64,000 nt of DNA from Paecilomyces variotii (lineage: Eukaryota): assembly GCA_004022145.1 (NCBI GenBank), contig RCNU01000008.1; one strand, written 5' to 3'. The position numbers and the translations under genes are program-made. The notes under the pieces were generated by a model, which ran no database searches, was not told the origin of the DNA, and saw nothing but the letters and a program-made list of their open reading frames with translations. Shown one piece after another: positions 12,860 to 64,000 of the stretch (the stretch's first letter is position 1; every line of letters begins with the position of its first letter).

Positions 12860-14260
12860 AAAGGTCTCCAAAAAGAAGCTGAATGTCTGTGTGAGCAACG
12901 TCCGATAGGGGTCTTGTTCGGAAGAACTTTGCAGAGCATGCTACAGACAAGTCTAATGGCATAATAGTCATTAGCGACAAAGACGGACAGTCCTTGAAAA
13001 CAAACGCCTGGATTCCTATCGTCTCCCTGAACCAAGCGGAGCTAGTCAAAGGTAGCATTCGCGGCGGTGATAGACATCAACTACCGCCTCTGGTTGCTTC
13101 TTCATTCAGTACAATGTCCTTCAACCAATTTAGCGGACAACTCGGACGATCCTTGTTCGACAGGCTCCTTCAGAGCGGTTTCCCTATCCAAACTCTTAGC
13201 GTTCAACACAAGATGCACCTAAGGCTCGCATTCTTTCCGAGTACGTATACGTACGGCGGAAGGATTGCTTATGATATGACCATTTCATGGAATGAAAACC
13301 GCCGGAAAGCCGTTAAACTGGAAGGGGTGGATATATCGGAAGCCATCTCGTTACTCGAGAACTTGGCGAAGAGAGGCTGAGACGGTCTTTTGACATTTTC
13401 ATATTGTGTTTCCTGCGACGGTCTTGCATACTGCCCTGATTCTAAGATTTATTCTTGTTACATACTTTGCTGACGTTTATTAACCGCGTTCTTGCGAAGT
13501 CGGCCTTCCTGTTACCAGTTGTTTCGTGGCTGGTTCGACGACGACAAGGGACAGCCTGACGAGCTGTCTCCTCCTCCAGCCCCTCCGACTGCCGCTGTGA
13601 TGTCGGAACCAACAACTCCTCGTACGCGGATTACGCCGTTCACCGCCATCAATAGCGGTGGTAGAGGAGCACCTCCCACCTGAGATACGCCGGGATCGGT
13701 TCGTGTCCGGCAACGTGATTCCTCCTGCGCGTGAGGAGGTGCAGGCTAGTCCGTCGCGTCTTCTGATGAATCCGAGGAAGGTAACTTCCTCCTTGTGGAA
13801 TTCGCATTTGCTCAATTTTGCATAAAGGTTATGCTTGCGTAGTCTTTCTAGCACTTCCGATACGTGCTGTACATGTTCTTCTTCATCCATTGAGAAGATC
13901 AGGATGTCGTCCAGGTATACAATGCAGCAGATATCTAACAGGCCCCTCAGTGCCGTGTTGATATAGGCTTGAAATGTAGCCGGAGCACGGAAGTGCATGA
14001 GTTCTTCTGTTTAACACAGGACTCATCGTTCGACTGGCCCCTCGAACCACACGAGCGAAAACCTGTGCCAGATTATTTAAGTGAGACCCTCACCTTATGC
14101 AGTTTTGTTTATGTGCTAAAAATTTGTAGGATCCATCTTACGAGACTACAACCTTTGCACAGCGCTCAGTATATGAAATCTCTGATCAATTTCGCGGCAA
14201 AGAAAGGTGTTGCGTGGCGTAATATGGTGAAGCTTGCAACAGTTGATTCGATGCAAGGCA
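12860..14260 (+). pseudogene. DNA2/NAM7 helicase remnant, copy 3, interrupted by an insertion
   Basis: AWIPIVSL...GGDRHQLPP, SLFDRL, QHKMHLRLAFFPSTYTYGG; after the ~13.4-14.0 kb insertion, VKLATVDSMQG. Confidence 0.75.
13765..13986 (-). mobile_element. Ty3/Gypsy reverse transcriptase fragment (~220 bp)
   Basis: APATFQAYINTAL...CIVYLDDILIFS...HV..VLERL...LYAKLSKCEF...VTFLGFI; no LTRs seen. Confidence 0.92.
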
Positions 14261-17101
14261 CTTGTGCATACGACAAACGGCTAATGAGAAGTTGTTCTTG
14301 CAAGTATACTAGGCGCATATATTCTAGTAGCAGACAAAGGTCTGTGGTTGGCATGTTCCTACAGAAACCCAAAGACAGTCTTTGGCTGGAGAGGGGCGTG
14401 ACTTGCTCTTCCCTTTTGGAAAGCCAAAGGCTTGCACACATAATAAAGAATGCACGCAAACTTGTCGCGCAGATGCGCAAGAAGCGACTGGCGAAGATGT
14501 GGATCTCAAAGGCCAGTAAGGTCGAACACACGCTGCGTAAAGCAAAGATTGAGGCTATGCAGAGTGCAGGAGATAAGACCACTGAAACCACGCAAAATGA
14601 CGCCCCTATACCCCCTATGGAAGGCTTCTCAGAAGGACATTGGAGACCATTCTGCCTTGCAATACCTCCTCCGCAGATCACCAAAGCTGCGTGCAAGAAA
14701 AGAAAAGCCCACGGACTTTCGATAGTGGCAATGTGAACGCATTTCTCTCATCTTCGAGCTCAAAAGTCTCATCCGAAGAAGAGGCTTGCAAATCCCAAGC
14801 CCCAGCGGATCATTCCTCCTCACAGAATCAAACGAAATGTTAATCGAAAGAGACTACGAAATGCCGGGGAGGATTTCAAAGAAATCAGTATGCATGGAAC
14901 TTGAGTCAAGCACGCAAGGGACGCTCTCAAGAAGCTTGAACCTGGTAGTGTTCGTGGCAGTGAACTCGATGAAACCAAGAAGAAATTCGCTGTGGCTTTT
15001 GTTGATCGGTACAACTTGATGACTACTTAGCTTAGGGTGCCCTGTCAAAAAGAAGCCGACCCAAGAGCAATTCGACCTAGCAGCATCGGTCAAAATAAGA
15101 AATACAACCGCCTCTACTCTTGAAATAGTTACTCCCTGGACTATAGCTGCCAAGATAGCGAAGAAGAAAAACTCGCGCACACAGACAATCTTGGGAAGTT
15201 CTCTTGTGAAGAATGACTCTCCTTCGAGGAAACGAAGCTTTGAGGATATCAATTAGCAAAAGGTATAGTCTACTTTGTCCAGTATACTTATCCCATTGTA
15301 GCCTTGCTAATCAGATATTGCAGTATTACATACTACAATACGGATTCTGAATTACGAGTCAGCTCAGCTATTTCATTCCTTTACCAACACCCTCCCACAG
15401 TTTCCGCGCGCCACCCCCATTTGCGAACCACTGACAAAAGATGTTATACGCTATGGGAGTGGAACAGTAATGGCGACACTATGTGGACTTTTTAATACCT
15501 GTATTTTATCGCTTTTATACTACGGAAAGGTCGGTTCAAATCTACATATCTATTATATGCAATGCTACTGCACATTGATATTGCATGTACATGTATCTTA
15601 ATTCTAGTCAACCGCGTCTATGAATGCAGTTATCATAACATCCCAGAAGAGGACAAGGTGTAAAATGCCGTCTGTGTAGAACTACTACTCCGTCTCCATT
15701 GTATTTTGTATGATCCCGCTCAATATACTCATTAGCAGTCTGTACAGTCCACCTCTGAACCTGATCCTCGGTTTCCTCATTGCCAATTTGCACATTCTGT
15801 CTATTCTCTCTGCGCTCACTACACTTGATACAATCAGGCGTTTATCAATCAAGACTTTCTGGGACTAACGTCATGATAATTATGAATAATTCTGCTAGGT
15901 TCGAGAAACCCAGATTGGCGCGGCGAAAGCAGCGTTTCGACGGCGGAAGGCGAGAGACAGAAGCCCGCATAATTAGGAGAATTACTGCTTATCAGTAGAG
16001 ATCTCCGGGGATATGGTTTCTGTATCCTCTATGCCACTTGAACAGCCTCTCTTCCCTCCCCTTTTGTTTGGTTCGCTGTTTGGTCCGTGGTCGCGGAGTA
16101 TGTGGCGTCCTCTGCGATCGATTATTACTTCGTCGAGTTTTTCGGCCGTCTTTTTTGCTGCCTCGAAGCTCATCGCCACGCTGACTCCGTTGCCGTTTCT
16201 GGCGCTTCACCTGAGTGCAGATTGTCCGAACTGTTCTTCAACGCATCGATGAATTGCCAAAGCCTCTGCGCGGATGAACCTGCAGAATCCGCATCGGGGT
16301 TTGGTGGTGCCATCTTCGATCTTTCCCAGAAGGATGTTGCAATAATGAACCAGGTCACTTCACTGGCCCACCGCTGAGAGGGGAAAGCCTTTGATCTTCA
16401 AGGTTATCGAGTATCCGGTTCGCGAACGGATGGCACACAACATATAATGATAGGCAGGCCGGTAGGTGACAAGGCGATATGATCATAGTCGACCACCGGC
16501 TAATCGAAGAGTGCCGCTGGCTGAAGATTTCCCGCTCCGATCAGCGATGTCGCGGTAGCAACCTCTTGTCAGGGATATAGCAACTTAGGGTACTTCGTAC
16601 TAGTCAAAATGTACTTTCAGTGCCTCCCTGCTATTATTTAGACACCACCTGGGCAAGTCAGCCAGACGTACGGAATGAAACGGGACTTGTTCCTGTTAGA
16701 GAGACTAAGCCCTCGAGTTCGGGGACCGTGTCAGATAAGGTCTCCCTCCATGATATCCGGCTTTTTGTTGCCCAAGAATACTTTCTGCGTGCTGTGGAGT
16801 CCTTTTTCTGGGTCAAAGTGTCTCAGTCAACTATGTCCTCAGAAGACTATCTCTTCTAAGAGATGACTTGTACAATGTACGCACGAGTCAGTCTGTGACA
16901 GTGCTGAGAAGACGTAACTCCGATTGCGCCTGAACTCGTCAGAAAAAATCATAAGGCAATGACCATTTTAGTCGTTGGTTTTGTATTCTGGCGTCGCTTG
17001 CTTACCTCGTTTGAATCCCGAGCTTAGGATGATCTCCTCAAGGTTTGCGTAGTCACTAAGTCTGTTGAATACCGGTTGATATTATTGCGCCTTATCCCCA
17101 A

Positions 17102-24032: not shown

Positions 24033-25310
24033 TTTGACAGAGTCCTGTTCAGATAAGTTGACTTGGAGCAGAATATTGTGCACCTATAGACACTGCTTGA
24101 ATAGAAAGGAAGATTTTAACAGGTCAGGGAAGACTTAGGGAATCTTCAGGTAAAGTAAATGTGAAGCGCAGGAATGAAGTTGAGGTCAAGTTGAGACAGA
24201 ACTGAAGAAGTAAGGGCTTGCCGTTAAGTTTCCTGGTTAGGATTAGGTACTTAGGTTACACCGCTTTGTATAGGGTTCAGAATCGTTGAAGCCTAATAGT
24301 GCATAGCATGCGTAACTTTGATGTTGTAGAGAAACATTGCATCATATGCTAAGGCATCTCTAGCAGCGGAAGCATACCTAGTTTAAGTAGATGAGTGTTT
24401 GGCTTTCCGCAGGTAGAATACCTACCTAAAGTATTGTGAATTACTTACTATCTTGCGTTGTATCATTTCTACCAAGTGATGTAATGTCCAAACTCAGAAA
24501 GGCTCTCTATTAGTTATTGGATATACAGCGCTACGTATCATTCCTTCTAAGGAACTCGTATGGTAGTCTAGTATGATTTATTTCTCTGTCCAGCCACTCC
24601 CCGCCACAATGTACATACATACAGTACGTACTGTAACGAAAGGGACGCCATCCCAGACTAACCAACATTGAGTTAGTGAGGAACTGCCCCAAGCTAGAGA
24701 GTCTTGATTTGATTGCGATTTATTATGTATCCTTTTCTTCTCTTTTTGATTCTTTCTTCACTCTGATCTGCGATGGACGGATACTGATATTATTTCCATC
24801 CAGCTAATCTAGCTACTACATATGCCAGGTCATACCTCTTCGAACCCTCGAAACAGACAGACAAATTGGGCAAGCGGACCGCGTCTTGATAAAGAACTTT
24901 TGCGCGTTGATTCTCCGCAAGGCCAGACAGACACCATTCACCTCACTGCAAGGTCACAGCGGTGTCGCTCTTTTCAAAATTTGGATCTGAACCGAAAATT
25001 ATTTTCTCATCTGCAAGGGAGATACGATTCCTCCTTTTCTGTTACCAGCGCCCGAACGAAACGTCCGCAGTCCGTTATCGAAAGCTACACCTCCTGCGGA
25101 ACAGTCTTGTCTCTCGTCATGGTTCGTCCTTGGCTGAGCAGCAGTCTGTAAGCACCAAGGTTGATCTTGTGGTGAGCGGGATCCGATCCTGCTAGGAAAT
25201 ATACGTTTGGTTGAGCACGAAAGAGCTCAGGACAGGTCAGGGAAAGACGGTCGCGTGCGTGAATACGTCAAACCCGGCGGGCGACGCAGCAGCAGACATT
25301 TACCGCGAAA

Positions 25311-28012
25311 ATGGCCGAGACAGATACCGCGCAGGTATCGACCAGCGCGAATCCGTACGAGACAGATCCGGACAAGATTCCAGAAGGCGATCCTTACCTA
25401 GCTCGAAGCCCTCATTATGGCCGCTACCACCCGCGACCTGACGACTTTACGCCCCAATACAATCACTGGTACCAATCCGAGCCTGAAAGCACAGAATACT
25501 GGAAGGACGTTGTGCGGAAATACTGTACACCGGAGAATTCTATACAGACGGTCGGGGATAGGGAAGTCTTTATTGCCGGCACAGTCGTCATCCGAGTGGA
25601 CAAGGAAGATGCGAGTGGCGCAGCAGAGTCGCGGTATTCTTGCTTGAACGCAAACGAACTAGGAGCTGCTAGAAAGGCCCGAGAGGCCCTCAGAGACTTA
25701 GACATTGCGGTGCCTGTGATATACTTCTGTGGAACTGTCGACGGGAAGAATGTCACCGTCGAATCGCGAATCCCAGGTGTCTCGCTGGACGTTGCCTGGA
25801 GATATCTCACACCAGAGCAAAGGCAAAGTCTCAAAGTACAGTGTTGCAATGTCATTAAGAATCTCCAGATCGCCGACTCGTCGTCTGATGAACCCTCCTA
25901 CGTCTGCCGCGGATTGAATCACCAAACACTACCGGAAGCGCAACAACCGGAACGGGATATACTTTTCGAGGAGAACAAAAAGGGTGAAGATTTCTGCTTT
26001 GTACATAATGATATGGTCCGATCTAATATCGTTGTAAAAGACGATAAGATTGTTGGCATCGTTGGCTGGAGACAATGTGGCTACTTTGGTCTCGATAGGG
26101 CTAGGAATGTCCATCGCGAGCTAAGAACGCCTGAATCGTCTTACATCACTGCCTCAGGTGAGGATGATGGTGAGAAGAATTCCTGGGCTGACCTGTATGA
26201 TTTGTTACGCGAGGACACTGGCAAAAAGGCTCTTACGAATGGACATGGCAACCCGACGCCCGAGGTGAAACTCGAGCCCTCCGCCTCTAGTCTGGATGCA
26301 GTCCCCAGCGCTGCCATGGACGGCGTAAAGCTTTCTATAAGCCAGTTGGACGGCACAGATTTTCCTGCCGAACATCCTACTCCCAAGAAAGTGAACGATT
26401 TGAAAAGGGGTTCAATGTCAAGAGCCTCATCATCAGAACGTTCGTCCCCCGTTCCAGCTACCAAGGGCGGCACTGCTGCCAAAAGACCCACGGCAGCATC
26501 AAGCAAGAAGGGCACGGCAACTCAAAAAGCCGCGCCTAAAAAGCGCAAGCTAAACACTCGGGACGGAGAAAGTGTTGATGGCCGTTCTAACACCCCGGCC
26601 TCATCGCGTGCGAGCAAGACGCCAGCGCCAAAAAAGCAGGGTTCCGCATCGGCGGCAGGCTCGCCAGCTCCAGAAAACAAGAAGAAACGTTCGAAGAAAG
26701 CAGCTCCGGAGTCAGACGACGAAAGTGTCGAAGACGCGAACGAGGTCTTCTGTATCTGCCGGCGACCAGATAATCATACCTGGATGATCGGTTGTGATGG
26801 AGGCTGCGAAGATTGGTTTCATGGAAAATGTGTCAATATCGATCCCAGAGATGCAGACTTGATTGACAAGTACATTTGTAAGTCTTATCAGTGCCTTACT
26901 ACCTTCCATGTATCTGCCCTCGCTGACAATACTCGTCAGGCCCCAATTGCCAAGAGCAAGGAAAAGGAAACACCACATGGAAGCCGATGTGTCGCCTGCC
27001 AGAATGTCGCAAGCCTGCTCGTATCACCAAACAGGTCTTGAGCAAATACTGCTGTGACGATCATGGCCGAGAGTTCATGCGTCTTAAGACTCAACACCTC
27101 AACCTAGTACCCGCTGTACGCACTTCCAATAACTCACGCTCCACGAGCAGTACTCGAAAAGGAGACAAAAGCCAGCGGAGTAGTAATCTTGTTGGCGAAC
27201 AAGATCCAGAGGCGTCTCACGCCGAGGATGGCGCCGCATCCAACGAAGACGATGACGATGACATGGACGCCGATGTGAGGAATGCAACGGAGGAACTCGG
27301 GAGCAGAGGGGGTATTCTCACGGCACGCGAGTTGAAGGCAGCTATATCAGGAGTATCCTCGGTGGAAGAGTTCCGAAGACTGGGCGATCGAATTGTGTCG
27401 CCTCCAGACGACAATGTCAAGGATGAAGGCGGCAAGAAGCTGGGTCTAGATATTGATCCTAAGGACCTCACCTACACACCTGATGAGGAGACAAAGATCC
27501 AAAAACTACGGAAGCGAAGAGATGAGCTTCTTCACCGCACAGAGATGCTCCGAGCTCGTAACACCTTCCTAGGCTTAGTACGACAGAGGGGTAAAAACGT
27601 GCTGGAGCGGTTGAAGCAAGTAGACCCAAAGGGTGGCTGGAAGGACATATGTGGCTTCGACACGCGGCTGTCTTGGAGTGACGAGGAATTCGACGAATGG
27701 AGACTCTCCGAGGCCGGCCAAAAGGCTCTCAAGGATGGCAATCTGGAAGCCATTCCTGCAAAGGATGCAGATGGGGATACCCCGATGGAAGACGCCTCGA
27801 ACCAGGAGAATGAAATCGGCACGATTTCTCGCGGTGTCTGTCTCAAGAAACGCTGCGAGCGACATAAACAGTGGGTCAAAGTTCAGCAACAGGACATTCA
27901 ATTCGAGGAAGCCATGACCATCCAAGATCTTGCAAAATGCGAGCAGGAGGCGCAGGCTGTCGTCGAAAGAGCCGTTCTTCGCATGTGGGCTGAGAAAGAT
28001 GGCTCCGGATAG
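25311..28012 (+). CDS. SPP1: COMPASS/Set1C PHD-finger subunit Spp1 with an N-terminal APH/choline-kinase-like domain
   Basis: PHD finger FCICRRPD..WMIGCDGGCEDWFHGKCV...YICPNC across intron 26878-26939; SKYCCDDHG and CLKKRCERHKQW. Confidence 0.85.
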
Positions 28013-42140: not shown

Positions 42141-44621
42141 TGGATGTGGTTTATATAGCGTGGGACTTGGGATCGGACTAGTGTCCCTATGTTTAGTACA
42201 TTCGTTTCGTTCATGTTACTCTTTAACAGCATAGATCATTTCAGTCGTTTTGTCTTTTTATTGGTACTCTTCTCATTCATGTTTTTGTCGAGCGTTTGCT
42301 GCATCATTTAAGCATGCCGTGCCTTCCCTTGGCGATTTCCTTTTTGCCATTCTGCGCTTTTTCGTTTGTTGAGTCTTCGCCACTGTTTGGCATCCCATTC
42401 AATTCTGTCCTGTCCATACCTATTTCGTTGGTTATCTGTCTGGATACTGGCTACGGGAGGCATCAAAATAAGCTGGTCTATAGCTAGGGCTAGTTGTAAG
42501 AAAGCTTTTGAGAACTTCTTTAGTCAGGAAAATGCACATTGAGTATTAGATGATGTCTGCTGCTCCTGGATGTTTCAACCATGCAGTCGTCTTTAATAAT
42601 ATATCAACTAGTGCCAACAATCAAGTACGAGAAATCAGTCGTCCAACCATAAGCGTAGATATCTAAAGTACTCCGTAACCCTATCCCTGATCATTAGCCC
42701 TGTCGATCACAGAAAGTTGCAGAACGATCTGCAGCCCCCAGGTCGTATCCGCCCCCCTCGCACTCTCAGAGACACCCAAGGAAGTAGAATTATCGTACCA
42801 TACGTACGTCGTTACACACGACTGGATTCCTGCAAGACATGAAAGCGAGCTTTAGTGTCGAGTATTGTGTCTGATAGGCAATCGATGTTGCGAAAGGTAA
42901 CTGTCGAAAGTGAATATTAACTAACCTAACTACAGCAGCTACTCCATACACCTGCCCGGTTAACGACCAAGTCAAGCTTTTGCTGGCTATGACTAGTGGC
43001 ATAAAAGGTGGGACATACTGTCCTACTCCAGAAAAATAATTGATCTATTATTTTGCAGAAATCAATTTTTCCCGTGTCACTATCAACAACCCTGGGATCT
43101 AAACGGTAGTAAATACCTATCGCGGCCAGATCGACAACGAAACCTCGAGAGCAACATACGGAATAGTAACCCTTCTACGTATTCCCAGCGACTTTGCTTG
43201 TTGGCTGTATGGTAAAGATAACAAAGCGCTGTGGCGTCGATGAAGGCTCTTTCTTGCCTTGGAGGACGGCGAGCTCCGGTTTGCTTTTATTCAGGTAATA
43301 GGAATGATATCTGCGAAACCTCTGGAATGGAATTCAGCTTCGAAGTTTAGATAAGATTGTGACCATCCGATTCTCTGCGCTGTGATCATAATCATAATTG
43401 TCCATCTAAGTCCTGCAGTCGGAGACTGGCGTCAACGAGTTGTTCCTTCGGAAGCGCCCTATATCAACTATCGGTAATTTCCGCCACCGCAAGGACATAC
43501 TAACGCAAATCCAGCACTCATCTTCGTTCTATCCCTATCTCATCTTGAACTTGGCTTGGGCTTGGATTGGACGCAAAAAATCAATGATTTTCTTAATCTA
43601 CGCATGGGAGGTCTTTTTTTTTCTTTTTCATAGTGCGGGAAGCCGACGCGTTGTGCAGTCTAGCTCTAGTAGTCATGATGCACGAGGACGCGATGCAACC
43701 GAGGCCCAGTCTCTGTATTCTGACTGATCTAGTCGAACGAACCGTTCCTGAAGGGTCGAGGACTCCATGTGGCTGTCTGGGATATGGAGGAACTGCCGGA
43801 TTCGTGGGGGGGTATTATCTGTAATACTCTCTGGAAGATACATATCTCCATATCGTCCTGGCTGCAGTGGCGCATGGACTTTCTTTGCAGCTTTTCTGGT
43901 TCCATCTTGCGCTAACATCTAATATGCCGTGTAACCCTCCGACGGATGATCTTTGAGTTGTCAATCGACCGTCGAGCTATCTCCCAAAGTGGCTTCTACG
44001 GCATCGAGTGAGCACGCGAGCCCTCAAAGAACTAGAGTCTTTCATGAGGCCACTTGCTATGCGTAACTCTGGCCCTATGAGAGTGTTCGGATTGGCCAAC
44101 ATGCTAAGCTCTGAAAGTTTTCGATCTATGCTGGAATGTATAATGATTACTCTGTGCGACAACCTAACGCGATACCCCTGACGGGGTTAACAAGGCTACC
44201 ATCTTATTCCTTCTTATCTTTGCACGGGGTCTTCCATCGGTCTTCCATACATCCCAAGTCTAGTCAGCTTGGGCTGACAGGCGCACATGGTAACCCCACA
44301 CAGATGCACAGGGTGGTACTCTATTTGCATGTTCGCACGCCCTTGTGGCTGACTCGACGGATGATAAGGAAACATGCAGATCGTTTATTTCTGAAAACGG
44401 CCATTTCCATGTGGGCTCTAGGATATCATTGTGGAACGACTGTCCGTGGCTTGAATGATATAGAGCCAGTCCGGCACTCATTCACCTGCCTCGGATCTTG
44501 GGAATCCTGTCTCTTACATTTCCTGTCTTTTCATTAGAGAATTGAGTTCACACCCAGCTGTGGTTTTGTTCATGTCTTAATTTCCAGAGTTGTTACAAGT
44601 CCACTATTGCCTACCGTAATC

Positions 44622-46673
44622 ATGGGTCAATGGACTGAACGACTCGATCGTGCCGTGGCCGATAGTGCCTTTGGCCGTCGGTTCAGGTTGGAGAGGTCAG
44701 GGCATGTATGTCCATATGCCAACTATTGGCTATCAGTATCATTGATATATGATCCCGGATGTCCATACTCACATACATTCTGCAGAGACGTGAGCGCAAA
44801 GGATCGCGTTTCTCGACAGAAATCCGTGCTGGTCTTGCTACCTTCTTCGCAATGGCATATATCATTTCGGTATGTAATAGCAGGCCACATCGTTCCACAA
44901 TTTCACCAAACATGACGATTAATATACCTCTCTAGGTTAATGCCACAATCTTGACAGACTCAGGGGGCACATGTGTTTGCACAGATACGAAGGACCCGAC
45001 GTGTGCAACTGACGTCGAATACAATCTTTGTCTGAACGTGATCCGACGAGACCTCATCACGGCAACAGCCGCAATCGCTGCGCTATCTACATTCTCTATG
45101 GGAGTCTTTGCCAACATGCCCATAGCTTTGGCACCTGGAAGTATGTCTAACAGAACATGGACTACTTCACGAGCACCCCCAAGATCTAACTTCTCATAGT
45201 GGGATTGAATGCTTATTTCGCATACAACGTCGTCGGTTTCCATGGAACCGGACCAGTTCCATACAGATTGGCTTTAACCTCAGTTTTCCTTGAAGGATTC
45301 GTTTTCGTTGGACTCTCCATTTTGGGCTTGCGTCAGTGGCTTGCAAGGGCTATTCCACGGTCCATTAAGCTAGCATCAAGCGTTGGAATCGGGTTGTATC
45401 TCTGTGCGTATTTGGAATAACAACCCTGATGAGTCCGTTGGCTAACAAATTAAAGCTCTAATCGGCTTGACGTATAGCGCTGGCATTGGCGCCATTACGG
45501 GCGACACGAGTACTCCTATCGCTATTGCTGGCTGTAGGCAAAGTGATATGTTAGAAGACGGTACCTGCCCGTCATGGGCCAAAATGCGCAATCCGACTCT
45601 GTGGATCGGTATCTTTTGCGGCGGTATCTTGACCTGTATCCTGCTGATGTACAGGATCAAAGGCGCCATCATTGCTGGAATTTTACTCGTTTCCATAATC
45701 TCGTGGCCGCGCGATACAAGTATCACTTATTTCCCTCACACCCCCGAAGGAGACAATTCATTCGACTTCTTCAAGAAGGTCGTCACTTTTCATCGGATCG
45801 AGAAGACACTTAACGCGCAGAACTTTGACCTTGCCGGCGTCAGCGGACAGCTTGGACTCGCTTTCATCACATTTCTCTACGTCGACATCCTCGACTGCAC
45901 AGGTACGCTATATTCAATGGCTCGCTTCGCGGGCGCAATCGACCAAGAGACACAAGACTTTGAAGGTTCATCCGTCGCGTATCTTGTGGACGCGTTCAGC
46001 ATTTCAATCGGTTCTTTGTTCGGCTCATCCCCCGTAACAGCCTTTGTTGAATCTGGAGCTGGCATCTCCGAAGGCGGCATGACAGGTATAACCGCCATGG
46101 TAACCGGTCTTTGCTTCTTTATCTCAGTATTCTTCGCGCCCATCTTCGCTTCCATCCCTCCCTGGGCCACCGGTTGCACATTAGTCCTCGTCGGCTCCAT
46201 GATGACGAAAGCGGCCCCGGAGATCAACTGGTTATACCTCGGTGATGCCGTTCCTGCATTTGTGACATTGGCCGTAATGCCGTTCACTTATTCCATAGCA
46301 TATGGTCTCATCTCCGGCATCGTCACGTATGTGATCCTTAATACGTTCACTTGGCTCGTTGATAAAGTCTCAGGCGGTCGCATCACCCCTGCCAACAGAC
46401 ATCTGAAAGATCCATGGACATACAAGATCCCCGGTGGCATACTTCCAGCTTGGATTGTGCGCCTCGCTCGCGGGTCAGTGCTCTTTGATACTGCGTTTTC
46501 GTGGTTGTTTTTAGATCGCAAATACTGATTTTATGCGCCCATTTTATAGGAAGAAGGATTTCTGGCGCGAGGAACCGAAAGAAAGTAGAATTACATCGTC
46601 TGTTTACACGCTATCTTTTCGGGGTGCAGCGCCAGGAACGGTCGTCGCGTTGGATACTGTTGTGGATAAGTAG
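44622..46673 (+). CDS. azgA: AzgA-family purine (adenine/guanine/hypoxanthine) permease, ~6 exons
   Basis: EIRAGLATFFAMAYIISVN, NMPIALAPG.GLNAYFAY, DILDCTGTL, SPVTAFVESGAGISEGG.TG, MPFTYSIAYG. Confidence 0.9.
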
Positions 46674-46871
46674 ATGGCTTCTGGCGACTTAAATGTCAAC
46701 GCAGAAGACCTTATAACGAGGGGGTCTAAGTTTATTCCCAACTCGCAGAGGTATAATGGATAAACTACTTGATATTGGTTAGTTAGCTACAATATTGGTA
46801 AGAGTACGACTTGACGCAGATATACATATAGAGATTTCTATTCAGTCTTCTTACTGCTAGCAATGCAATGT

Positions 46872-47158
46872 TATCATACAATCTGGTATCAGAGCAAAAC
46901 TATTTCGAGACAATTTGGTCGACATCAATGTTGGGCCGCATGTTCTGAATCCCAACAATACGTCCACGACAAGGAGTTGACGGCTTGTCCTCAGCAAACA
47001 AAGTATCATACAATCTGGTAATAGAGCGAAACTGCTTCAAGACAATTTGGAGACATCAATATTGGGCGGCATATTCTCAATCCCAACAATACGTCCAGAG
47101 CTAGCTTCGCGATGCTGAACAGGAGGGCTTGACGGCTTGTGCTCGGCAAGGAAAGTAA
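46872..47158. repeat. Diverged tandem duplication (period ~132 bp) of the 3' end of the caspase-like gene
   Basis: tatcatacaatctggta...aatcccaacaatacgtcca...ttgacggcttgt starts at both 46872 and 47004. Confidence 0.85.
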
Positions 47159-48134
47159 CCCCAGGTAGACCCTGGATGCGAAGGAAAGCGGTATAAGGAG
47201 CCTCAAAAATAAACAACATCGAGTTCGTTTCCTTCACGTATTCGAGTTTTAACGTACAGTCTCCTTCGAGATTGGCGATCCATGCTGATAGTTGTTCTAA
47301 CTGTTGTGCATCGTACGTGTAAGAAACGTGGATGGAAAAGGTGGCCGCAAGGTGTGCAACCGGTTGATTGATAAGTCCCATAATAGAATTCGACATTGCA
47401 GCCGAGTTCGGATTGAGAGGCAGTTTAATGGACCCGACTCCTAGCAAAGACGCGTGACACGGCTTTTTTAGCGGAGAAATACGTCGAAGTTCACTAATGA
47501 CATCCGTAAACTCGACATATTGGTGGCACATCTGCGCTCTCTGGCGGATCTCGATGAACAATTTGGATGTCAGCGATGCTTTCACTGTGGACTCAAAGGC
47601 AATTGGATCTCTTTCGTCACCCGCGGTAATGATTTCGACAAGCCGGGCTCCGGGTTTCATCGTTCGGCTCGCTAAAAAGCTCCAACAGCAGTCAAAAATG
47701 ACAAGGATATCAACGTCCACCTGGTCATCATACGTTTGAAATGCTTGCAAGACTGCAGATGCTTTCATAACTTTCCCCGATGAATTGGTGAGGAGTAGTT
47801 CGTCACCACCAGCACTGGCCGCTCCGTGTCCCGCGTAGTGGACTACGACGACACTTCTTCCTTGTGCTTTCCACGCGGGCATCGTAAGCTTTTCATTGAG
47901 TTCCTGGGTCAAAAACCACCCAGGTTGTGCCTGACGTGAGCCAATGACTAATTCGTGTGGCTCTGGAAATCCGAGTATGTCCATCATTGACTTGAAACTT
48001 TGAAAGTCACGCTCCGCCCCAGTATTATCATCGGACCAACGGAAATGAAACGAGTAGCAATTCTGATAGACCGTCTCCCGTCTCTTGATGGCAGCCTGGA
48101 GGACGGTTTCGAGTTCACCTCTCGAGAGAGACAT
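47037..48134 (-). CDS. Caspase/metacaspase-like (clan CD, peptidase C14-type) protein, intronless
   Basis: VVVVHYAGHG (catalytic His) and DILVIFDCC (catalytic Cys); ATG at 48134, 365 codons to stop. Confidence 0.75.
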   Translation of the reverse strand: MSLSRGELETVLQAAIKRRETVYQNCYSFHFRWSDDNTGAERDFQSFKSMMDILGFPEPHELVIGSRQAQPGWFLTQELNEKLTMPAWKAQGRSVVVVHYAGHGAASAGGDELLLTNSSGKVMKASAVLQAFQTYDDQVDVDILVIFDCCWSFLASRTMKPGARLVEIITAGDERDPIAFESTVKASLTSKLFIEIRQRAQMCHQYVEFTDVISELRRISPLKKPCHASLLGVGSIKLPLNPNSAAMSNSIMGLINQPVAHLAATFSIHVSYTYDAQQLEQLSAWIANLEGDCTLKLEYVKETNSMLFIFEAPYTAFLRIQGLPGVTFLAEHKPSSPPVQHREASSGRIVGIENMPPNIDVSKLS

Positions 48135-48144
48135 TTTGTTGGGT

Positions 48145-48532
48145 TGATGGTACAAGATAACAAAGATCAATATAGGTATTCAGTGTCTTTGCCGTTCGAT
48201 CAAGAGCTGTACTCAATAAAGGTCCAGGATACGACAGATACCCTTTGAGAGGATAAAAACGACAGGATTATCTTGAAAGGAGTTGGGGAAAGAAAGCAAT
48301 CATGCAAGGTTGGATCGAGTTTGAGTGTCCTAGGTTGAAGGGCCCGATGGAAGGAGCGACTATATACTTGACAGGGTGGTAGCCTAGTGGGCACCTGCCT
48401 ATAATTTGTATACCTCGGTTCCATAAGGGTTCCTGATCCGCCTTCGATTACGGCACGGCAGGGTTAAATTTCCTGGTTACATGCTGATATCGTGTACGGT
48501 ATTTTAGGTAGCAAAGTCTCTTCCGTGAATTT
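48145..48532 (-). repeat. Promoter/5'UTR module, copy A (upstream of the caspase-like gene)
   Basis: Collinear blocks shared with 50137-50503, e.g. tgatggtNcaagataa, attcagtgt, tcgagtttga, gtgtccNaggttgaagg, tggtagcct, ggcacctg, ctcggttccNtaaggg, gatccgc, ggcacgg, ctgatatcg, taggtaNcaaNgtctctNccgtg. Confidence 0.85.
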
Positions 48533-48850
48533 AGGCTCATCATTCTGGACGAGTTGTGCGGAAGTGATATTATCTGAGTATCTTTCTGTCGGGTGGCTGG
48601 AATACATACTAGACTCCTGAGATCGTCAAGCGGAAAGAAGTAGAATATGACTCTGATGTAAGGCGCACTCCATATTGCTGTACTCCTACCTAAAATAGCG
48701 GTAGACTTTAAGAGTGATAATATAATGCAGATAGTTCTGCATTAAGGAGTATATAAAACACGCATCAGGGACTTGTGCATTTTGCCAACGTATATTGCTA
48801 TTGAAGCTGACACCGGTCCTATGCCCTACCATAATTCCCACAGTCAATGT

Positions 48851-49146
48851 CAGCTACGGTATATGTGAGAATACAATCTACTCAAGTCCAAAGTAAATCA
48901 TTGAAAGCATTATTTCATAATTGTCTAAGCTTCTACAAAGGAAGTGCAAAGTCTTTATATGGCGATTATTACGTGATAGATATAACCCACTTCTCCTTGA
49001 TTCTACCGTCTGTCTCCGCCTATTTCTTACCAGCCTGCTGAGTAGCCTTAGTGACCTCTCCAAACGGACGGATTTCCGCACAAATTGATTATTTTTGAAC
49101 ACGAATTGCAGGTTTTATAAGGAAAACACTAACCTTCATCTACTCA
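48851..49146 (-). repeat. Inverted, diverged copy of the TEF1 last intron, last exon and 3'UTR (source ~62808-63115)
   Basis: Reverse complement shares aattcgtgttcaaaaa, ggtcacYaaggc...aagaaataRgcggaga, tgtagaagcttagacaattatgaaat, gacttgagtagattgtattc and accgtagct with the TEF1 3' end. Confidence 0.92.
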
Positions 49147-50081
49147 ATATACCAAGGGAAGAGCCAGGTGAGCTTTTCCCTAGCATCGGCACTCCAATGA
49201 TGAGGAGGGGTGCTAATAGCAAACTTCATAGAGCCAGCCAGATGCTTAGCCTGCACAAGTTCAGTATGCTCTTTTTTAGCAAGTTCATCAAGAACAGCAG
49301 TGATAAAGTGCTTTGCATTAAGCGCGTTGGCTTTCATATTACCCATGACCATCTCAACGGTAACATCCTCAGTCGACTCGTACCAGCAGTCATAGTCCGT
49401 TGACATACAGATCATTTGGTATGCGATTTCGGCTTCACGGGCAAGTTTAGCCTCTGGAAGAGCGGACATGTTAATAATGCTACCACCCCAAGAGCGATAT
49501 AGGTTGCTTTCAGCGCGCGTAGAGAACTGAGGGCCCTCCATGCAAATCAACGTGCCACGGTCATGCAGCACAACACCCTCTCCCTCTAAGCTGTGTCCGC
49601 AAGCTCGAACAACCTTGGCAATGCCCTCATCGAATGGTTCACCGAAGGGGACGTGAGCAACAGCACCTCCTTCGAAGAAGGTGAATGGCCTGATACCCCT
49701 GGTTCTATCAATAATCTGGTCTGGGACCACAAAGTCGCGAGGCTTAATATACTCCTGTAAGCTTCCCACAGCAGAGAAAGCAATAATAGTCCGGACGCCG
49801 ATAGATCGAAGAGCAGCGATATTAGCACGAGCAGGCATCTCGTGAGGGGTGATCTGATGGTGAAGACCATGACGGCTCAAAAAGGCGATAGCGATAGACA
49901 CATCCTTGCCGTCAGTCGAGCACTTGTGGTGAAGGATAATGATAGGAGCGGAGGGCTTGCCCCAGGGAGTCAAAATATCTAGGGTCGCAACCTGCGTGAA
50001 ACCCGGGAGTTCTCTGAGTCCAGTACCGCCGATGACGGCGATTCTGACAGGCTCTTTGTATTCCTTGGGGATGGCGACCAT
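49140..50081 (-). CDS. MEU1: S-methyl-5'-thioadenosine phosphorylase (MTAP), intronless, 313 aa; probably a secondary or retro-derived copy
   Basis: IAVIGGTGL, FLSRHG, RANIAAL, AVGSL, PDQIIDRT, MEGPQFSTRAES, INMS..PEAKLAREAEI.Y, STDYDCW; uninterrupted ORF from ATG 50081. Confidence 0.93.
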   Translation of the reverse strand: MVAIPKEYKEPVRIAVIGGTGLRELPGFTQVATLDILTPWGKPSAPIIILHHKCSTDGKDVSIAIAFLSRHGLHHQITPHEMPARANIAALRSIGVRTIIAFSAVGSLQEYIKPRDFVVPDQIIDRTRGIRPFTFFEGGAVAHVPFGEPFDEGIAKVVRACGHSLEGEGVVLHDRGTLICMEGPQFSTRAESNLYRSWGGSIINMSALPEAKLAREAEIAYQMICMSTDYDCWYESTEDVTVEMVMGNMKANALNAKHFITAVLDELAKKEHTELVQAKHLAGSMKFAISTPPHHWSADAREKLTWLFPWYIE

Positions 50082-50136
50082 CTTTCTTGCCTGTTCGAGT
50101 GGTATCTCGTTGAGTGGTGGATCGAAGCCTGTGCCG

Positions 50137-50503
50137 TGATGGTCCAAGATAATAAGGATTAGTATGGATATTCAGTGTTTTGTTGTGGTATAAGGTTACC
50201 TTAATGGGCGTTTGAGGAGAAAGAAATGATGGGGCTTGAATCGAGTTTGAGGGGTCGCAGACAATAAGTGTCCGAGGTTGAAGGCCTGATGGAGGGAACA
50301 ACTTGTAGTTGAGAGGATGGTAGCCTTGTAGGCACCTGGCCGTGACATGTAGACCTTTGATCTCGGTTCCCTAAGGGGTCCCGATCCGCGTTTGTTCATG
50401 GCACGGTACTTTCAAGTTTCATGGTCTATCCTCAGGGAAAAGGCACAGTATGATTCACATTCTGATATCGGTTCCTAGGTAACAATGTCTCTGCCGTGGA
50501 TTT
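50137..50503 (-). repeat. Promoter/5'UTR module, copy B (upstream of MTAP)
   Basis: Homologous and collinear with 48145-48532, same orientation, with small indels. Confidence 0.85.
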
Positions 50504-52427: not shown

Positions 52428-54210
52428 CTATAGACTCAAAACAAACCACAGGAACGACACCATATCTTCCCGACTCCGAGTATTTTCCTCACTTCGTTTT
52501 GCACCGTCTTCACGGTCTGTAGGTCGTGGAAGAGGGTTGTACATATACTGCCAGAAGTTATTGTATGCATCGGACTCTGAAGACCGGCGAAATGGTACAA
52601 GATAACGAGAGCTGTCAAAATTATTCAGGTTTGGAAGCTGACTGGGCTCGTGGATGAGGAATATCTCGTGCCATCGTGGAGTCTCGCGTAACCTCGTCAG
52701 AGCATTAATCTGACGTCTCAGCTGTGCCTCGTTCTCCTCAAACGTTAAAGCTGTATTCATGAAATGAAGTAATTCGTTTGGCCTTGACACTTGCTTCCGA
52801 TTACTTCCATGACCTTGATGGAAGGAATAATTCTTCGACTCTGCCTTGTTGATCCTGACTACGGCATAGACAGTCGAATCATCATAGATCACGAATGCGA
52901 TCTGGATCAGTTTATCCATAAGCCGTTTGAAATGGATGTTGTTTACACGCCAGTCCAAATCCGCAAGCGCGTAAGCTAGCTTGAGGCTGCCCTCATGCAC
53001 TATACGGATCTCATGCAGCTGCTCTGCATTCCAAGCCTTTAAATTGAGTATTGCGACAAATGCGACCACATGCGACAAGAATTGGAAGCTCTGCAATTAA
53101 TTGCTGTGGGTTTTTGGCATTTTGAATTCCGGATTGAACCAGAAAAGAACGTGTATGAGGAGGTTTTTCACAATAGGCCCAAGTATTGTCTCGAACTCTT
53201 TATGCACCTATTAAGAATCCAAATCATAAAAGGCGTTTATTGTCGGAAGCAGACTGGGTTCGTGGTTCAAGAAGGCCAAATGCCAGTTTCGATTATCGCG
53301 TAATTTTCAGATTACGTCGATTTGTCTCCTCAAGGGCACTTTATTTTCCTCGAATTCGAGAGATAAAACGATAAATTTGAGAGGTTTGTTAGGAGTTGTC
53401 ACAAAGTCCTCGAAACGTAGCGATTATTTCCCGTATATGACGATATGGATATCATCTTTGTGGATATCTGCGTGGTCGGGGATTGCAAAGCCATTATAGA
53501 AGATCTGGGAAATATGCTCATCTGGCATGAATACAATTTCAACTCGAGTACTGTCAGAGATGATAAGATTTGAATCTTTAAGGAAGTTCCCTGCGTTTTC
53601 AACCTCGTCCGGTCTGAGTGGCACCCGGACATGTATCTACCTCTTTTCCTGTGAATAGGAGGAGGTGACCATGAACAGGAAAATCCAAGAACGTAAGTTC
53701 TTCAGGGATTCGCCGAGGACTTGCCATGGACCCGCTCATGGTTTCCCTGCAAGTGTTCGGTAAGGGTCCTTCGCGCGTCATCTAGGCGCTTGACACGGTC
53801 GACTGCGTTTTCTGCTTCTCCCATTTGCGTGTCTTCGGCGACATCGAGGCGCGATTCGGGGATAAAGCCCATGAGTGCTTCCGCTGGTGCGATTCCGGTT
53901 GCGCTATGTCGGGATTTATTGTAGACCAGTTGCGCCACTGGCAATAGGCTGGCCCAGTTATCCTGCTCGAAGTTAGTATATGCTCGCAAGTAGTGCTCAA
54001 GTACCTGGTTTTGGTGCTCCGTCTGTCCATCGGTCTGCGGGTGGAAAGCGGTTGATAGACCGCGTTTTGCCCCTATGCGAGGCGGAGTGTCTCCCAGTAC
54101 TTGCTCTTTTCGATAAAGCAGACAAACTTACATTAAGTGTCGGGGTGTGGCCATCCTGTGCCGTCTCCTGCAACTCTACCTTTAGTTGTACGGTGTCCCC
54201 CTGGTCTTCA
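52428..54210 (-). pseudogene. N-terminal remnant of the DNA2/NAM7 helicase family, copy 4
   Basis: IISDSTRVEIVFMPDE..NGFAIPDHADIHKDDIHIVIYG aligns with copy 1 IVPGNTHFFIAFTPKE..AGIVIPDYVSIKQGNIYIAVHG; EAQLRRQINAL aligns with EAPIKRQINAL. Confidence 0.6.
53702..54104 (-). mobile_element. Ty3/Gypsy integrase fragment (~400 bp)
   Basis: LSTAFHPQTDGQTEHQNQVLEHYLRAYTNFEQDNWASLLPVAQLVYNKSRHSATGIAPAEALMG. Confidence 0.9.
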
Positions 54211-54438: not shown

Positions 54439-56063
54439 AAGATAAGTAGTCAACAAAGGGGGGTTCATAAATGTATGTATATGTATATCTGATGAGAAAA
54501 AAATCGGAGGGCCAGAGAGGAAGATGGCTGTATTTATGTCCGAGAGATCTGGTCTCGAAGCGGGGTTTCAGCAATTCCTTCGCACTTACAGTCCGCGAAT
54601 ATAGGATTCATCAAATTGGCACCTCAATTGTCGGATCTCCCCTTTCCTCGGACGTCTCTATGAGGGGAATGCTGCGGGGTTGAGATGTGAATTTCCTTCT
54701 TTCGTGCATTCCTATCAGCCCTCACGGCTTCTGTGAAGACGAGCTGCAAACCTGCTGCAATCCGCTGCTCCTATCCTATACAAACCGGGTAGCAGCTGCA
54801 ACGGGGAGCTACCTGGATCCACCTGTATGGGATCAAAGAAGACGGAGCTAGAACCGTAGAACAGTTTAGTTGGAGATTCAGTTCGGCTCCTGGCAGCTGC
54901 AATATTAGGATAGAGTCAGGGAACAGAGATAGCTGATAGGTTTCGGCGACCTCCAGCTCTCTGAGCAATTAAGAAATTATTCCCGTACAAGTGCTCCTCC
55001 AGAACCTTTGCTCCGTGATCCTAGATTTCCGCAGTTCCTCTATGACTTGCCCTGCCCTTGCAATACCGGCGGACCTCTCCATATTCTCTCGTCCTGGGAA
55101 TGCTCTTATTCCCCTTAGCAAACTCGTCGGACATCCCACACATCGCATCATCTTCACTGGTTGTACAATGCAATTACTAACCCATTTCCATTCCCTTTTC
55201 GGGAATGCGCGTCAGTATCCCAGACATGTAGGGTAACTGCATTTCCCTCTCACCAAGAGCAAGGGAATGGCATGTGGAATACGTAGCACCCTCGTGCGTA
55301 ACTGCCCGTCACTCTTCCGAATGATAGCCCTCCAGCCAGTAGGTTTCCAGCGGACCTCTCAGGATGAGAACAATGTCAGCTTGTCGTGCGTATATTTTAC
55401 TGTTGTCCTAGAGTATTTGATATTTTATAGTCTTGGATTGAACGGCGTACATATACTGTCTATGAGATTCCTTACGTTACGCGAACTCACTACGGATATA
55501 TATATTCCTAGACAGAGCTAGAGCGTGACTAGACTTCGCATCAGGCGAGCCGGTCGGTATGCATCAGATAGCGCGATTCTTATTTGCAGTCGAATGAGCA
55601 TGTACTGTAGATGAAGTTACGCGCTAAATCCTTGGACGAAGCATCGACAGTACTTAGGTTCATTCATCTCCAGACGGCCAAAAAAAAGAGCGACAAGAAT
55701 AGGAATGAAGAGCAAAAAAAGAAATCGCTTTGCATCATCCGTGAATCGAACACGGGCCTCGTCGATGGCAACGACGAATTCTACCACTAGACCAATGATG
55801 CTTGCTTGTTAGTGTGGTGGAGAAATTTGAATAATATCGAAGGCGAATGTGGGGTGGATAGTTGCTATCTCAACTGATAAACTTTGACGTCGCCAGGCAA
55901 GGTTAGAGTGCTTGCCAAGCGTCGCGCGTCTAACGCGTCGGGCGCGAACACGGACCATACTCAACTGCGCTTGAACAATATCGCAAGAGGCTATCAACTG
56001 TTAGTATCTTGGATTTGTTCTGTAACGGTACCAAAAGCTACGTGGTAGCATCAAATCGGCAAC

Positions 56064-61114: not shown

Positions 61115-62946
61115 ATGGGGTAAGCAGGACCTCGATTCCATCAAAAAAATCCATCGAGGATGGGCTTCATTCGGACTCGATAGCTAACTGATCTGTCTTA
61201 CAGTAAGGAAGAGAAGTCCCACATCAACATCGTCGTCATTGGACACGTCGACTCCGGCAAGTCCACTACGACCGGTAAGACACCTCGATCCTGCTGCCTC
61301 GACGATTCCTACGATACTCATAAATTATACAGGTCACTTGATCTACAAGTGCGGTGGTATTGACCAGCGTACCATTGAGAAGTTCGAGAAGGTATGATTC
61401 TACTCGCACAAAAATTCTGATTTTTTTTTTCACTACCCCTCTTGTGGTGGGGGAGGGGTTGCGATCGGCGGTTTCAGGTGCACTAGCACCAACGGAGTCA
61501 CCGCCTTCGACCTCTCTTTTGCTACCGGAGAGGTTAATCACCTCAGGTTTCCTTTCGCTGAAGCTAACTATCCCTATAGGAAGCCAACGAACTCGGAAAG
61601 GGTTCCTTCAAGTACGCCTGGGTTCTTGACAAGCTCAAGGCCGAGCGTGAGCGTGGTATCACCATCGACATTGCCCTCTGGAAGTTCCAGACCAGCAAGT
61701 ATGAGGTCACCGTCATTGGTAAGTCGACTCGTCTACGTATGACTACTTGAACAGGACATTGCTAATCTTCACTCACAGACGCCCCCGGTCACCGTGACTT
61801 CATCAAGAACATGATCACTGGTACCTCCCAGGCTGACTGCGCTATCCTCATCATTGCCTCCGGTACTGGTGAGTTCGAGGCTGGTATCTCCAAGGATGGC
61901 CAGACTCGTGAGCACGCTCTGCTCGCCTTCACCCTTGGTGTCCGCCAGCTCATTGTTGCCCTCAACAAGATGGACACTGCCAAGTGGTCCCAGGACCGTT
62001 ACAACGAGATTGTCAAGGAGACCTCCAACTTCATCAAGAAGGTCGGATACAACCCCAAGAGTGTCCCCTTCGTCCCCATCTCCGGTTTCCACGGTGACAA
62101 CATGCTTGAGCCCTCCGCCAACTGCCCCTGGTACAAGGGTTGGGAGAAGGAGACCAAGGCCGGCAAGGTCACTGGTAAGACCCTCCTCGAGGCCATTGAC
62201 GCCATCGAGCCCCCGGTCCGTCCCTCCAACAAGCCCCTCCGTCTTCCTCTCCAGGATGTCTACAAGATCTCCGGTATTGGAACAGTGCCCGTCGGCCGTG
62301 TCGAGACCGGTATCATCGCTCCCGGCATGGTCGTCACCTTCGCTCCTTCCAACGTCACCACTGAAGTCAAGTCCGTTGAGATGCACCACCAGCAGCTCAA
62401 GGAGGGTGTTCCCGGTGACAACGTTGGTTTCAACGTGAAGAACGTCTCCGTCAAGGAGGTTCGCCGTGGTAACGTCGCGGGTGACTCCAAGAACGACCCC
62501 CCCATGGCCGCCGCCTCTTTCAACGCTCAGGTCATCGTCCTGAACCACCCTGGTCAGATCTCGGCCGGTTACGCTCCCGTCCTTGACTGCCACACTGCCC
62601 ACATTGCTTGCAAGTTCTCCGAGCTCCTCGAGAAGATCGACCGCCGTACCGGAAAGTCCACTGAGGACCACCCCAAGTTCATCAAGTCCGGTGACGCTGC
62701 CATCGTCAAGATGGTTCCCTCCAAGCCCATGTGTGTCGAGTCCTTCACCGACTACCCTCCTCTCGGTCGTTTCGCCGTCCGTGACATGCGTCAGACAGTC
62801 GCCGTTGGAGTAGTGAGTACGTATTTCCCTTTAAAACCCAGAATTCGTGTTCAAAAACTAATAATTCCGTTACAGAGTCCGTTGAGAAGTCCGCCGGTGG
62901 TGCCGGTAAGGTCACCAAGGCCGCCCAGAAGGCCACCAAGAAATAA
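61115..62946 (+). CDS. TEF1: Translation elongation factor 1-alpha
   Basis: [26 protein letters not shown]...[15 protein letters not shown]...NKMD...[11 protein letters not shown]; strongly biased codons; several 5' introns and a last intron at 62817-62875. Confidence 0.99.
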
Positions 62947-64000
62947 GCGGAGAAACACGGCAGAATACGGGAGACATGGGTCATGTGAATCATGTAATGA
63001 TCACGATGCAAAAACTCCGAGCTACTTCTGTAGAAGCTTAGACAATTATGAAATGATGTTTTCAATAATCCTTTTGAGACTTGAGTAGATTGTATTCGCG
63101 CGTAGACCGTAGCTAAGATTTGTCTCGGTGAGTAGTACAATTGTTAAGGTACATCATTACTATCATATATGATACGAGTACTTATGTGCTCCATGTGTAC
63201 GCCATGAGTTCCCATAAGAATAGCCTCGATGCTCAACTGCAGTCACACCCTGTATAGTAGGCTTAGTAGCTAGAGCAAGTAAATTAAATACTAGAGATTA
63301 ATCCCTGTAGATTAACCGGGTTTGAGTAATCTTGGAGCTAATGAAGATGCTTGATTGAGTTAACTACCTGTTATCTGGCCATTACTCTGCTGACTAAGCT
63401 GGCTGCTGGCGCTGGCGACCGCTACTGGAGCCCCCAGGGGCACCGAAATATCTTCTTATTTCTATGCGAATAAGTTGTATTAGAAGAACACAGAATCCAT
63501 TTCAAGACCTATTAATAGCATCCTCTGATACGGGCATGCATAGCCGTATTATAATGTCTTTCTTATCTTTTAACTGTCTGGTTAGACAGACCACCAATCC
63601 TGGAAGTTGCTCGTTTACATTGCCATTAAAAGCGTGCTCATTATGCGGATCTTGTACCGGCACAAGATCTTAGAGGAGTAATGCTATATATGTCCACAGT
63701 TACGTAGACGCGAATGGCTCACTAAAAGAAATGGTGAGGTCGGCAGACCAATGCGGAGCGGTCCCAGTTTGAGATCAGTTTCTGGCATAAGTACTATATT
63801 CGAGAACTTTTGTTAATAGTGAAACGGAATTAACAAATGCTAGTTATATGGCAAGTCTGACCTGTGGGCAGCATGGCAGGGCATGTTGGACGTTGCGACT
63901 GGTATTAGTTCCACTCGCGATATAATTACCTCGCCAAAATATATGAGTTCTTTACCTAGACTCCTTAATACAGAACTATTTGCATAAAGCTGTTACTCTT

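Follow-up and report, generated by a model that had tools for sequence, protein, structure and literature searches.

The stretch of DNA considered here is a 64,000-nucleotide window from contig RCNU01000008.1 (assembly GCA_004022145.1) of the fungus Paecilomyces variotii. The gene of interest is an intronless gene encoding S-methyl-5'-thioadenosine phosphorylase (MTAP), a salvage enzyme that is normally encoded by a single-copy gene. We refer to it as MTAP-B to distinguish it from a second form, MTAP-A, found in RNA from the same strain. MTAP-B is convergent with a gene for a purine/nucleobase permease and is enclosed by pieces of DNA that have diverged partners elsewhere in the window. An upstream module (P) is partnered with the region upstream of a neighboring caspase-like gene (P'), and a downstream piece is partnered with the 3' end of the elongation factor gene TEF1. 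The downstream piece and the caspase-like gene belong to a 2.29-kb block that is absent in a close relative. This anatomy and the presence/absence polymorphism of the block were observed directly, and the coordinates of the features are included in Table 1.

Table 1. Features at and around the MTAP-B locus (positions are those of the window; nt, nucleotides; aa, amino acids; ORF, open reading frame).
Feature	Position	Strand	Basis or remark
MTAP-B, S-methyl-5'-thioadenosine phosphorylase ORF, stop included	49140..50081	-	313 aa, uninterrupted; PF01048
Leader between module P and the ATG, 55 nt	50082..50136	-	no counterpart in window
Upstream module P, old duplicate of the upstream region of the caspase-like gene	50137..50503	-	74% core identity
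Upstream module P' of the caspase-like gene, partner of P	48145..48532	-	BLASTN/alignment
TEF1-derived fragment: most of last intron, decayed last exon with stop, 3' flank	48846..49125	-	73% core identity
TEF1 source region: last intron 62817-62875, last exon 62876-62946, 3' flank	62817..63120	+	spliced C-terminus
2.29-kb block absent in close relative: TEF1 piece, spacer, P', caspase-like gene, partial 3'-end copy	46850..49139		run X19, record 21
Caspase-like ORF, 366 aa from ATG	47037..48134	-	Peptidase_C14 below threshold
Tandem partial duplicate of caspase-like 3' end, period ~131 nt	46868..47005	-	three segments, 82-91% identity
Purine/nucleobase permease gene (Xan_ur_permease), convergent with MTAP-B	44001..46528	+	PF00860, spliced RNA contig

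The initial annotation, made from the sequence alone, described an uninterrupted, intronless MTAP reading frame at 50081-49140, and this description is borne out by a stop-free frame that matches PF01048 (PNP_UDP_1) with an E value of 4.3e-39 and a score of 134.7 bits (cut-off 25.1). The match spans residues 13-264 and covers positions 1-232 of the 233 in the profile. MTAP-B aligns end to end and colinearly with fungal MTAPs and keeps the native C-terminus. The closest database protein is P0001 from P. variotii (97% identity), and P0002, a gene model of 295 aa, is the MTAP-B protein with 18 residues spliced out. The best matches after P. variotii are MTAPs from Aspergillus and Thermoascus at 80% identity. 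Like fungal MTAPs of the yeast Meu1 type, MTAP-B is colinear over its full length and shares its C-terminus with the orthologues in Eurotiales and Onygenales, to which it is 75-80% identical. Unlike the canonical fungal enzyme, it would be a second copy of its lineage; it lacks the intron between codons 181 and 182, has an insertion of two residues after residue 59, evolves faster, and lies in a rearranged, non-canonical context. As an aside on the orthologues, many Aspergillus and Penicillium MTAP models (P0003, P0006, P0007 and others) have an N-terminal extension of ~30 aa that brings them to 338-342 aa. Models of 311 aa exist for the same species, and the extension is either an artefact of annotation or the product of an alternative start that adds a presequence-like peptide.

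The flanks of MTAP-B were characterized by comparing the window with itself using BLASTN. On the upstream side, 50267-50425 aligned with 48324-48477 (73.9% over 161 columns, E 1.2e-21) and 50137-50181 aligned with 48145-48189 (82.2% over 45 columns, E 1.9e-6). Positions 50457-50503 and 48479-48532 form a third block, whose local score of 39 compares to a maximum of 25 in 500 shuffles. The three blocks span 50137-50503 and so uphold the claim that the upstream ~370 bp copy the region upstream of the caspase-like gene. The core of P and P' contains 220 matches, 77 mismatches, and several indels, with a ratio of transitions to transversions of 43:34, and the two modules are direct repeats on the same strand, 1.95-1.99 kb apart. 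The leader between P and the ATG had been described as ~55 bp of unrelated sequence, which agrees with BLASTN and alignment over the 64-kb window, where it has no partner either upstream of the caspase-like gene or elsewhere. The flanks of 80 metagenome MTAP loci likewise contained no match to the leader, the upstream module, or the downstream pieces. A scan for bacterial-type promoters and terminators, which is irrelevant for a fungus, gave nothing above shuffles.

On the downstream side, the partner of 48846-49125 is 63120-62824 on the opposite strand. BLASTN gave 72.1% identity across 297 columns (E 5e-39), and the core has 199 matches, 74 mismatches, and a ratio of transitions to transversions of 45:29. 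TEF1 itself was recognized by four EF-Tu/eEF1A Pfam domains on 61766-63085, and removal of its last intron (62817-62875) restores the canonical eEF1A-type C-terminus. The piece next to MTAP-B begins 7 nt inside this intron and keeps 52 of its 59 bases, followed by the last exon in full and by ~174 nt of 3' flank; a 13-nt gap has eliminated the 3' splice site. The downstream ~290 bp had been called a diverged TEF1 3' end, and at 49125-48846 this is what was found. It had also been proposed that MTAP acquired a housekeeping 3' untranslated region (UTR). Here the result differs, as the piece includes intron sequence and was therefore copied from DNA and not from mRNA, that is, it is a DNA-level and not a processed copy. 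Both the upstream and the downstream homologies are far beyond chance.

Contigs from public runs, including X16, X18, and X19, were placed on the window. X18 is an RNA run, with 13 listed GT..AG or CT..AC spliced joints, and it comes from the same strain, as records 17, 19, and 20 have 0 differences to the window over several kb. Record 18 of this run, a contig of 1040 nt that begins 2 nt before the ATG, matches the window at 49139-50083 only, i.e., over the coding part, where it has 114 other letters (~88% identity). It has a 6-nt gap at 49894, the site of the two-residue insertion in MTAP-B (residues that are extra compared to all other genera), and its last 101 nt, at the 3' end, do not fit the window. 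This second MTAP form in the same RNA run was observed directly. At all 8 listed variant places in the coding sequence (CDS) where X18 differs from the window, the paralogue type has a depth of 1586 out of 1586-1589.8. Window-type MTAP letters are at best a trace in X18, and expression of MTAP-B seems to be low there; the diverged contig is deeper than every neighboring gene except TEF1.

The position of an intron in the second form is given by X19, which is a metatranscriptome of a community sample. A 5.7-kb contig of this run (record 22), taken as the contig of a relative, shares the variants of the X18 paralogue and carries an insert of 63 nt at 49538, where codon 182 begins. Genomic ORF fragments from Aspergillus break off from the alignment right after codon 181 or pick it up at codon 182, and the same split was found in 8 of 18 metagenome loci (seven by tblastn and L001 by blastn). 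The 63-nt insert thus falls on the intron site that is conserved in Eurotiales (181|182), and this position, too, was observed directly. In X16, a DNA-like run, the window type is present in record 3 at a depth of 22.8 and the other type at a depth of 13-14. We are fairly confident that MTAP-B, the copy in the window, is a derived gene without the intron and that a canonical MTAP-A, with its intron, is carried elsewhere by the strain. The prediction of an intron-containing parent elsewhere in the genome is therefore supported in part: the second form is present in RNA of the same strain and the intron form in the contig of a relative, while neither proves its presence in this genome.

These contigs could also be explained if MTAP-B were the only MTAP of the genome and the 88% form came from another strain or species in the samples. 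X19 is a mixture of organisms by nature, and X16 has ~2x the letters of the other label-A runs. Additionally, within a size range of 127-548 aa, the MTAP clusters of P. variotii were limited to the 313-aa type, with at least 21 accessions, and its mis-modelled 295-aa version, and no annotated second MTAP (a 311-aa form) was seen in that range. This explanation fits poorly with X18, where the neighboring genes have no second, diverged set of contigs and where, of the listed rows outside the MTAP CDS, all but three have a depth of 0 for other letters, the three being in a repeat-like stretch at 52-55 kb. Furthermore, just 13 of the 161 contigs placed on the window are less than 95% alike, and the diverged MTAP contig is deeper than all of the neighboring genes but TEF1. 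We consider it very unlikely that MTAP-B is the only copy.

The block polymorphism was observed in X19 record 21, a window-type contig with ~97% identity over the permease gene and ~96% over MTAP-B. This contig joins 46849 to 49140, at the MTAP stop codon, with 27 other letters between them, so that the permease gene is directly tail-to-tail with MTAP-B in the block-free relative. In a manual alignment, 15 of 18 (17 of 22) of these letters are identical to those with which the non-fitting 3' end of the paralogue begins. As the 27-nt stretch resembles the paralogue, MTAP-B in the relative keeps a parent-like 3' UTR, and the TEF1 piece is therefore not the original 3' end of the copy. The block-bearing form was also seen in another run (X16 record 3, 48870-49579, 6 differences). 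The parts of the block differ by 26-27% from their partners and the strains are 3-4% apart, which implies that the block was already old when the two arrangements separated. X18 has almost no cover on 48673-49139 beyond the paralogue contig and X19 has none on 46921-47504, which is uninformative either way.

The initial annotation had interpreted the locus as a processed MTAP that replaced the ORF of a duplicated caspase-like gene, subsequently took the TEF1 terminator, and has been maintained by selection as a rewired gene co-expressed with the caspase-like gene. Several features agree with such a replacement: the upstream modules are direct repeats on the same strand at a spacing of 1.95-1.99 kb, the partial copy of the caspase-like 3' end at 46868-47005 could be a relic of a second copy of that gene, and the MTAP-B protein is conserved. 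The relative speaks against the replacement, as its MTAP-B has a parent-like 3' UTR while the entire block, with the TEF1 piece, the promoter copy and the caspase-like gene, is missing; the replacement would therefore require an additional, precise deletion there, and 27 nt would have to be lost here. Exact identity between TEF1 and its copy is longest in two runs (26 and 20 nt), which are both in the 3' flank and could be taken as a sign of constraint on an acquired terminator. By our estimate, they are not significant if only the copy in TEF1 itself is constrained, and constraint on the TEF1-derived flank was rejected as a candidate. The proposed co-expression is not supported by the RNA either, as the depth in the same strain is nearly all of the paralogue type at the 8 places (window-type MTAP letters ~3 of ~1589) and the caspase-like contig has a depth of 115, although depth is a weak measure and this is a hint only. 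We regard the replacement as very doubtful.

The reading that we favor, at a probability of roughly 55%, is that MTAP-B is a second MTAP of the Paecilomyces lineage, retrogene-like in origin, with flanks that are separate copies made at the DNA level. MTAP-A would lie outside the window, would keep the intron at 181|182 and lack the two-residue insertion, and would dominate the RNA contigs. MTAP-B would have arisen as an RNA-mediated (retrogene-like) copy that landed tail-to-tail with the permease gene, originally with a parent-like 3' UTR. The patchwork flanks would be separate, old segmental copies of DNA. One is the module of ~370 bp common to MTAP-B and the caspase-like gene, presumably copied from the latter, and the other is the TEF1 piece of ~280 bp (intron, last exon, and 3' flank) that now abuts the MTAP-B stop codon. 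The present 3' end may have formed when a ready-made composite block was inserted into the original 3' UTR, or the block may have been deleted in the relative. The product is probably a weakly or conditionally expressed enzyme.

Animals and plants offer well-known examples of genes that were duplicated or retro-copied and then recruited new flanks. As in retrogenes and chimeric retrocopies with foreign regulatory DNA (reviewed in PMC5470649), MTAP-B is an intronless copy of an apparently intron-containing parent. The similarity is confined to the coding part and a short stretch of 3' UTR, and the promoter region is apparently not that of the parent. Unlike in such retrocopies, neither a poly(A) relic nor a target-site duplication was found at MTAP-B, its foreign 3' piece would have come with a later 2.29-kb block and not with the retrocopy, and its host is active in repeat-induced point mutation (RIP).

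Several observations weigh against the retrogene-like reading. MTAP-B shows neither a run of A after its stop codon in the window, as a poly(A) relic would be, nor a target-site duplication (no flanking repeats were found), a result to be read beside the displacement of the original 3' end by the 2.29-kb block. MTAP is colinear and intronless on L003 and L007, long genomic contigs of other fungi, and intron loss alone is therefore no proof of retroposition. X19 is a community sample and X16 is possibly a mixture, so co-occurrence of the two forms in these runs is no proof that they share one genome. Contig depth is a poor measure of expression, and the accessions noted above hold no annotated second MTAP. 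P0132, a protein fragment from Logan, agrees with the X18 paralogue at two listed non-synonymous places and is a candidate only for its product. Finally, one MTAP-B allele (P0128) carries T20N in a column that is invariant elsewhere.

A serious rival to a retrogene-like origin is that MTAP-B came from a segmental DNA duplication of MTAP-A and lost its introns later, perhaps through recombination with cDNA. Fungi commonly lose introns without retroposition, and the other duplicated pieces at this locus are DNA-level copies, with intron sequence in the TEF1 piece. A 131-nt tandem repeat lies in the same region, and neither a poly(A) tract nor a target-site duplication is visible. The 101-nt 3' end of the paralogue, on the other hand, is unlike the window past the stop, and the similarity is confined to 49139-50083. 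This objection is weakened in that, at ~12% divergence of the CDS, neutral flanks could have drifted below the 80% threshold. Overall, duplication at the DNA level followed by intron loss is possible but unlikely.

Whether MTAP-B is a functional gene can be approached from its alleles. The 90% protein cluster comprises 11 distinct full-length sequences of 313 aa, including the protein of the window, and 10 of these have NCBI accessions from many P. variotii strains (at least 21 accessions when P0002 is included). The frame is intact in all 11, and 24 residues are polymorphic, with G310W/F312I present in five. The window allele keeps 136 of the 139 columns that are invariant in 23 outgroup fungal MTAPs and its three departures (K128R, D148E, and G288A) are all conservative, in agreement with the statement in the initial annotation that the ORF and its conserved motifs are intact. 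At 7 of 9 listed CDS places where the run contigs vary from MTAP-B the change is synonymous, and the RIP indices of the CDS are unremarkable.

In a maximum-likelihood tree, the MTAP-B clade has as its sister P0132 (support 99/96), a fragment of 232 aa that covers residues 82-313 only. Measured from the node that joins them, the path is ~0.088 to the window protein compared to 0.014 to P0132, from which the MTAP-B protein appears to change ~6 times faster than its nearest relative. A metagenome scan with P0132 found no Paecilomyces-level relative, the best locus (L022) being 86% identical. The ENA protein P0131 has an open frame and the two-residue insertion and groups inside the MTAP-B clade at a greater distance than the alleles; the copy therefore predates the P. 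variotii alleles. These comparisons are consistent with purifying selection that continues to act on the duplicate but has been relaxed or altered, and MTAP-B still looks like a working phosphorylase.

The faster protein change, the 24 polymorphic residues (among them T20N and G310W/F312I), and the slight contribution of MTAP-B to the depth of same-strain RNA contigs would also be expected of a silent duplicate in decay. A gene in decay would not be expected to have a full open frame in 11 of 11 alleles and in the more distant P0131, to retain nearly all of the invariant columns, or to show mostly synonymous differences in its CDS, and we think it quite unlikely that MTAP-B is such a gene.

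The 11 alleles (P0001 and P0121-P0130) are mosaics of a few variant blocks (SIAI/SVAV, Y..V..R/H..I..K, GI/RV, and WYIE/GYFE), and several of the alternative states are identical to those of P0132. The pattern suggests recombination among old haplotypes or gene conversion from the paralogue.

P. variotii is the Eurotiales species in which RIP has been shown experimentally (PMC6300479). According to that study, RIP causes only C-to-T and G-to-A changes, active RIP normally destroys duplicates, and the gene families of P. variotii are described as unusually small with few duplicates. The locus shares with the RIP-mutated duplicates described there the presence of duplicated segments in a RIP-competent genome, and differs from them in that the flank copies mix transitions with transversions and the RIP indices of the CDS are ordinary. 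We reject RIP as the cause of the flank divergence on the ratios of 45:29 and 43:34 at 26-27% divergence, and the divergence appears to be ordinary and old.

The block polymorphism is a natural experiment in which the same ORF has two different 3' ends. A conserved extra MTAP would be a natural case of a duplicate that escaped RIP, and the locus is also a useful natural case of short segmental copies (a promoter, and an intron with a terminator piece) rebuilding the surroundings of a gene. The mechanism is not new; the case is instructive as a fairly ordinary gene duplication with local rearrangement. A more far-reaching version seems improbable to us. In this version, MTAP-B would be a functional, conditionally expressed retrogene that survived RIP, shares a promoter module with the caspase-like gene, and is paired with the AzgA-type purine permease in an accessory route for methylthioadenosine/adenine salvage or nucleoside-analogue detoxification, with presence or absence of the block switching its 3' end between a parent-like and a TEF1-derived UTR. 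In the library of papers that was searched, none joined P. variotii with methylthioadenosine phosphorylase.

The caspase-like ORF scores 16.9 bits with Peptidase_C14 (E 0.0053), short of the cut-off of 21.4, and has no match at E 0.001; the name thus denotes a weak resemblance, below the family threshold. X18 record 17 covers this ORF without differences and reaches 48173, 39 nt before the ATG. At the very edge of the block, 46868-47157 is a tandem duplication of the final ~135 nt of the caspase-like gene, including its stop codon. The permease gene matches PF00860 on 45467-46528 (E 4.4e-15) and has GT..AG joints at 44705/44786, 44868/44935, 45140/45200, and 45403/45456 in the X18 contig. An extra joint at 46472/46549 alters the C-terminus of the permease relative to the plain ORF. 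Record 17 (44001-48173) runs as one contig through the spliced permease gene and then the caspase-like gene on the opposite strand, and an overlap between the 3' ends of these convergent transcripts is probable. Rfam and tRNA scans found nothing within 46-51 kb. The locus was also considered as Starship cargo, but no match to a captain tyrosine recombinase (DUF3435) was found in 62 ORF scans, which took in a few regions twice and covered part of the 99 ORFs of at least 110 aa; such an element could exceed the window.

Elsewhere in the window, the repeat-like stretch at ~52-55 kb has high-depth variant contigs in the runs, a joint on the opposite strand at 53583/53695, and ORFs without Pfam matches; we take one of these (53702-53989) to resemble the tail of a retrotransposon integrase. 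A tRNA-Gly(GCC) gene at 55731-55801 on the minus strand adjoins this stretch. Positions 1-15000 contain fragmentary ORFs with matches to helicase C, AAA_11/AAA_12, protein kinase, and reverse transcriptase (13483-14010), and look like a degraded region rich in remains of mobile elements and pseudogenes. A long ORF at 25263-27038 on the plus strand combines a phosphotransferase (APH) match with a PHD finger, which is an unusual pairing.

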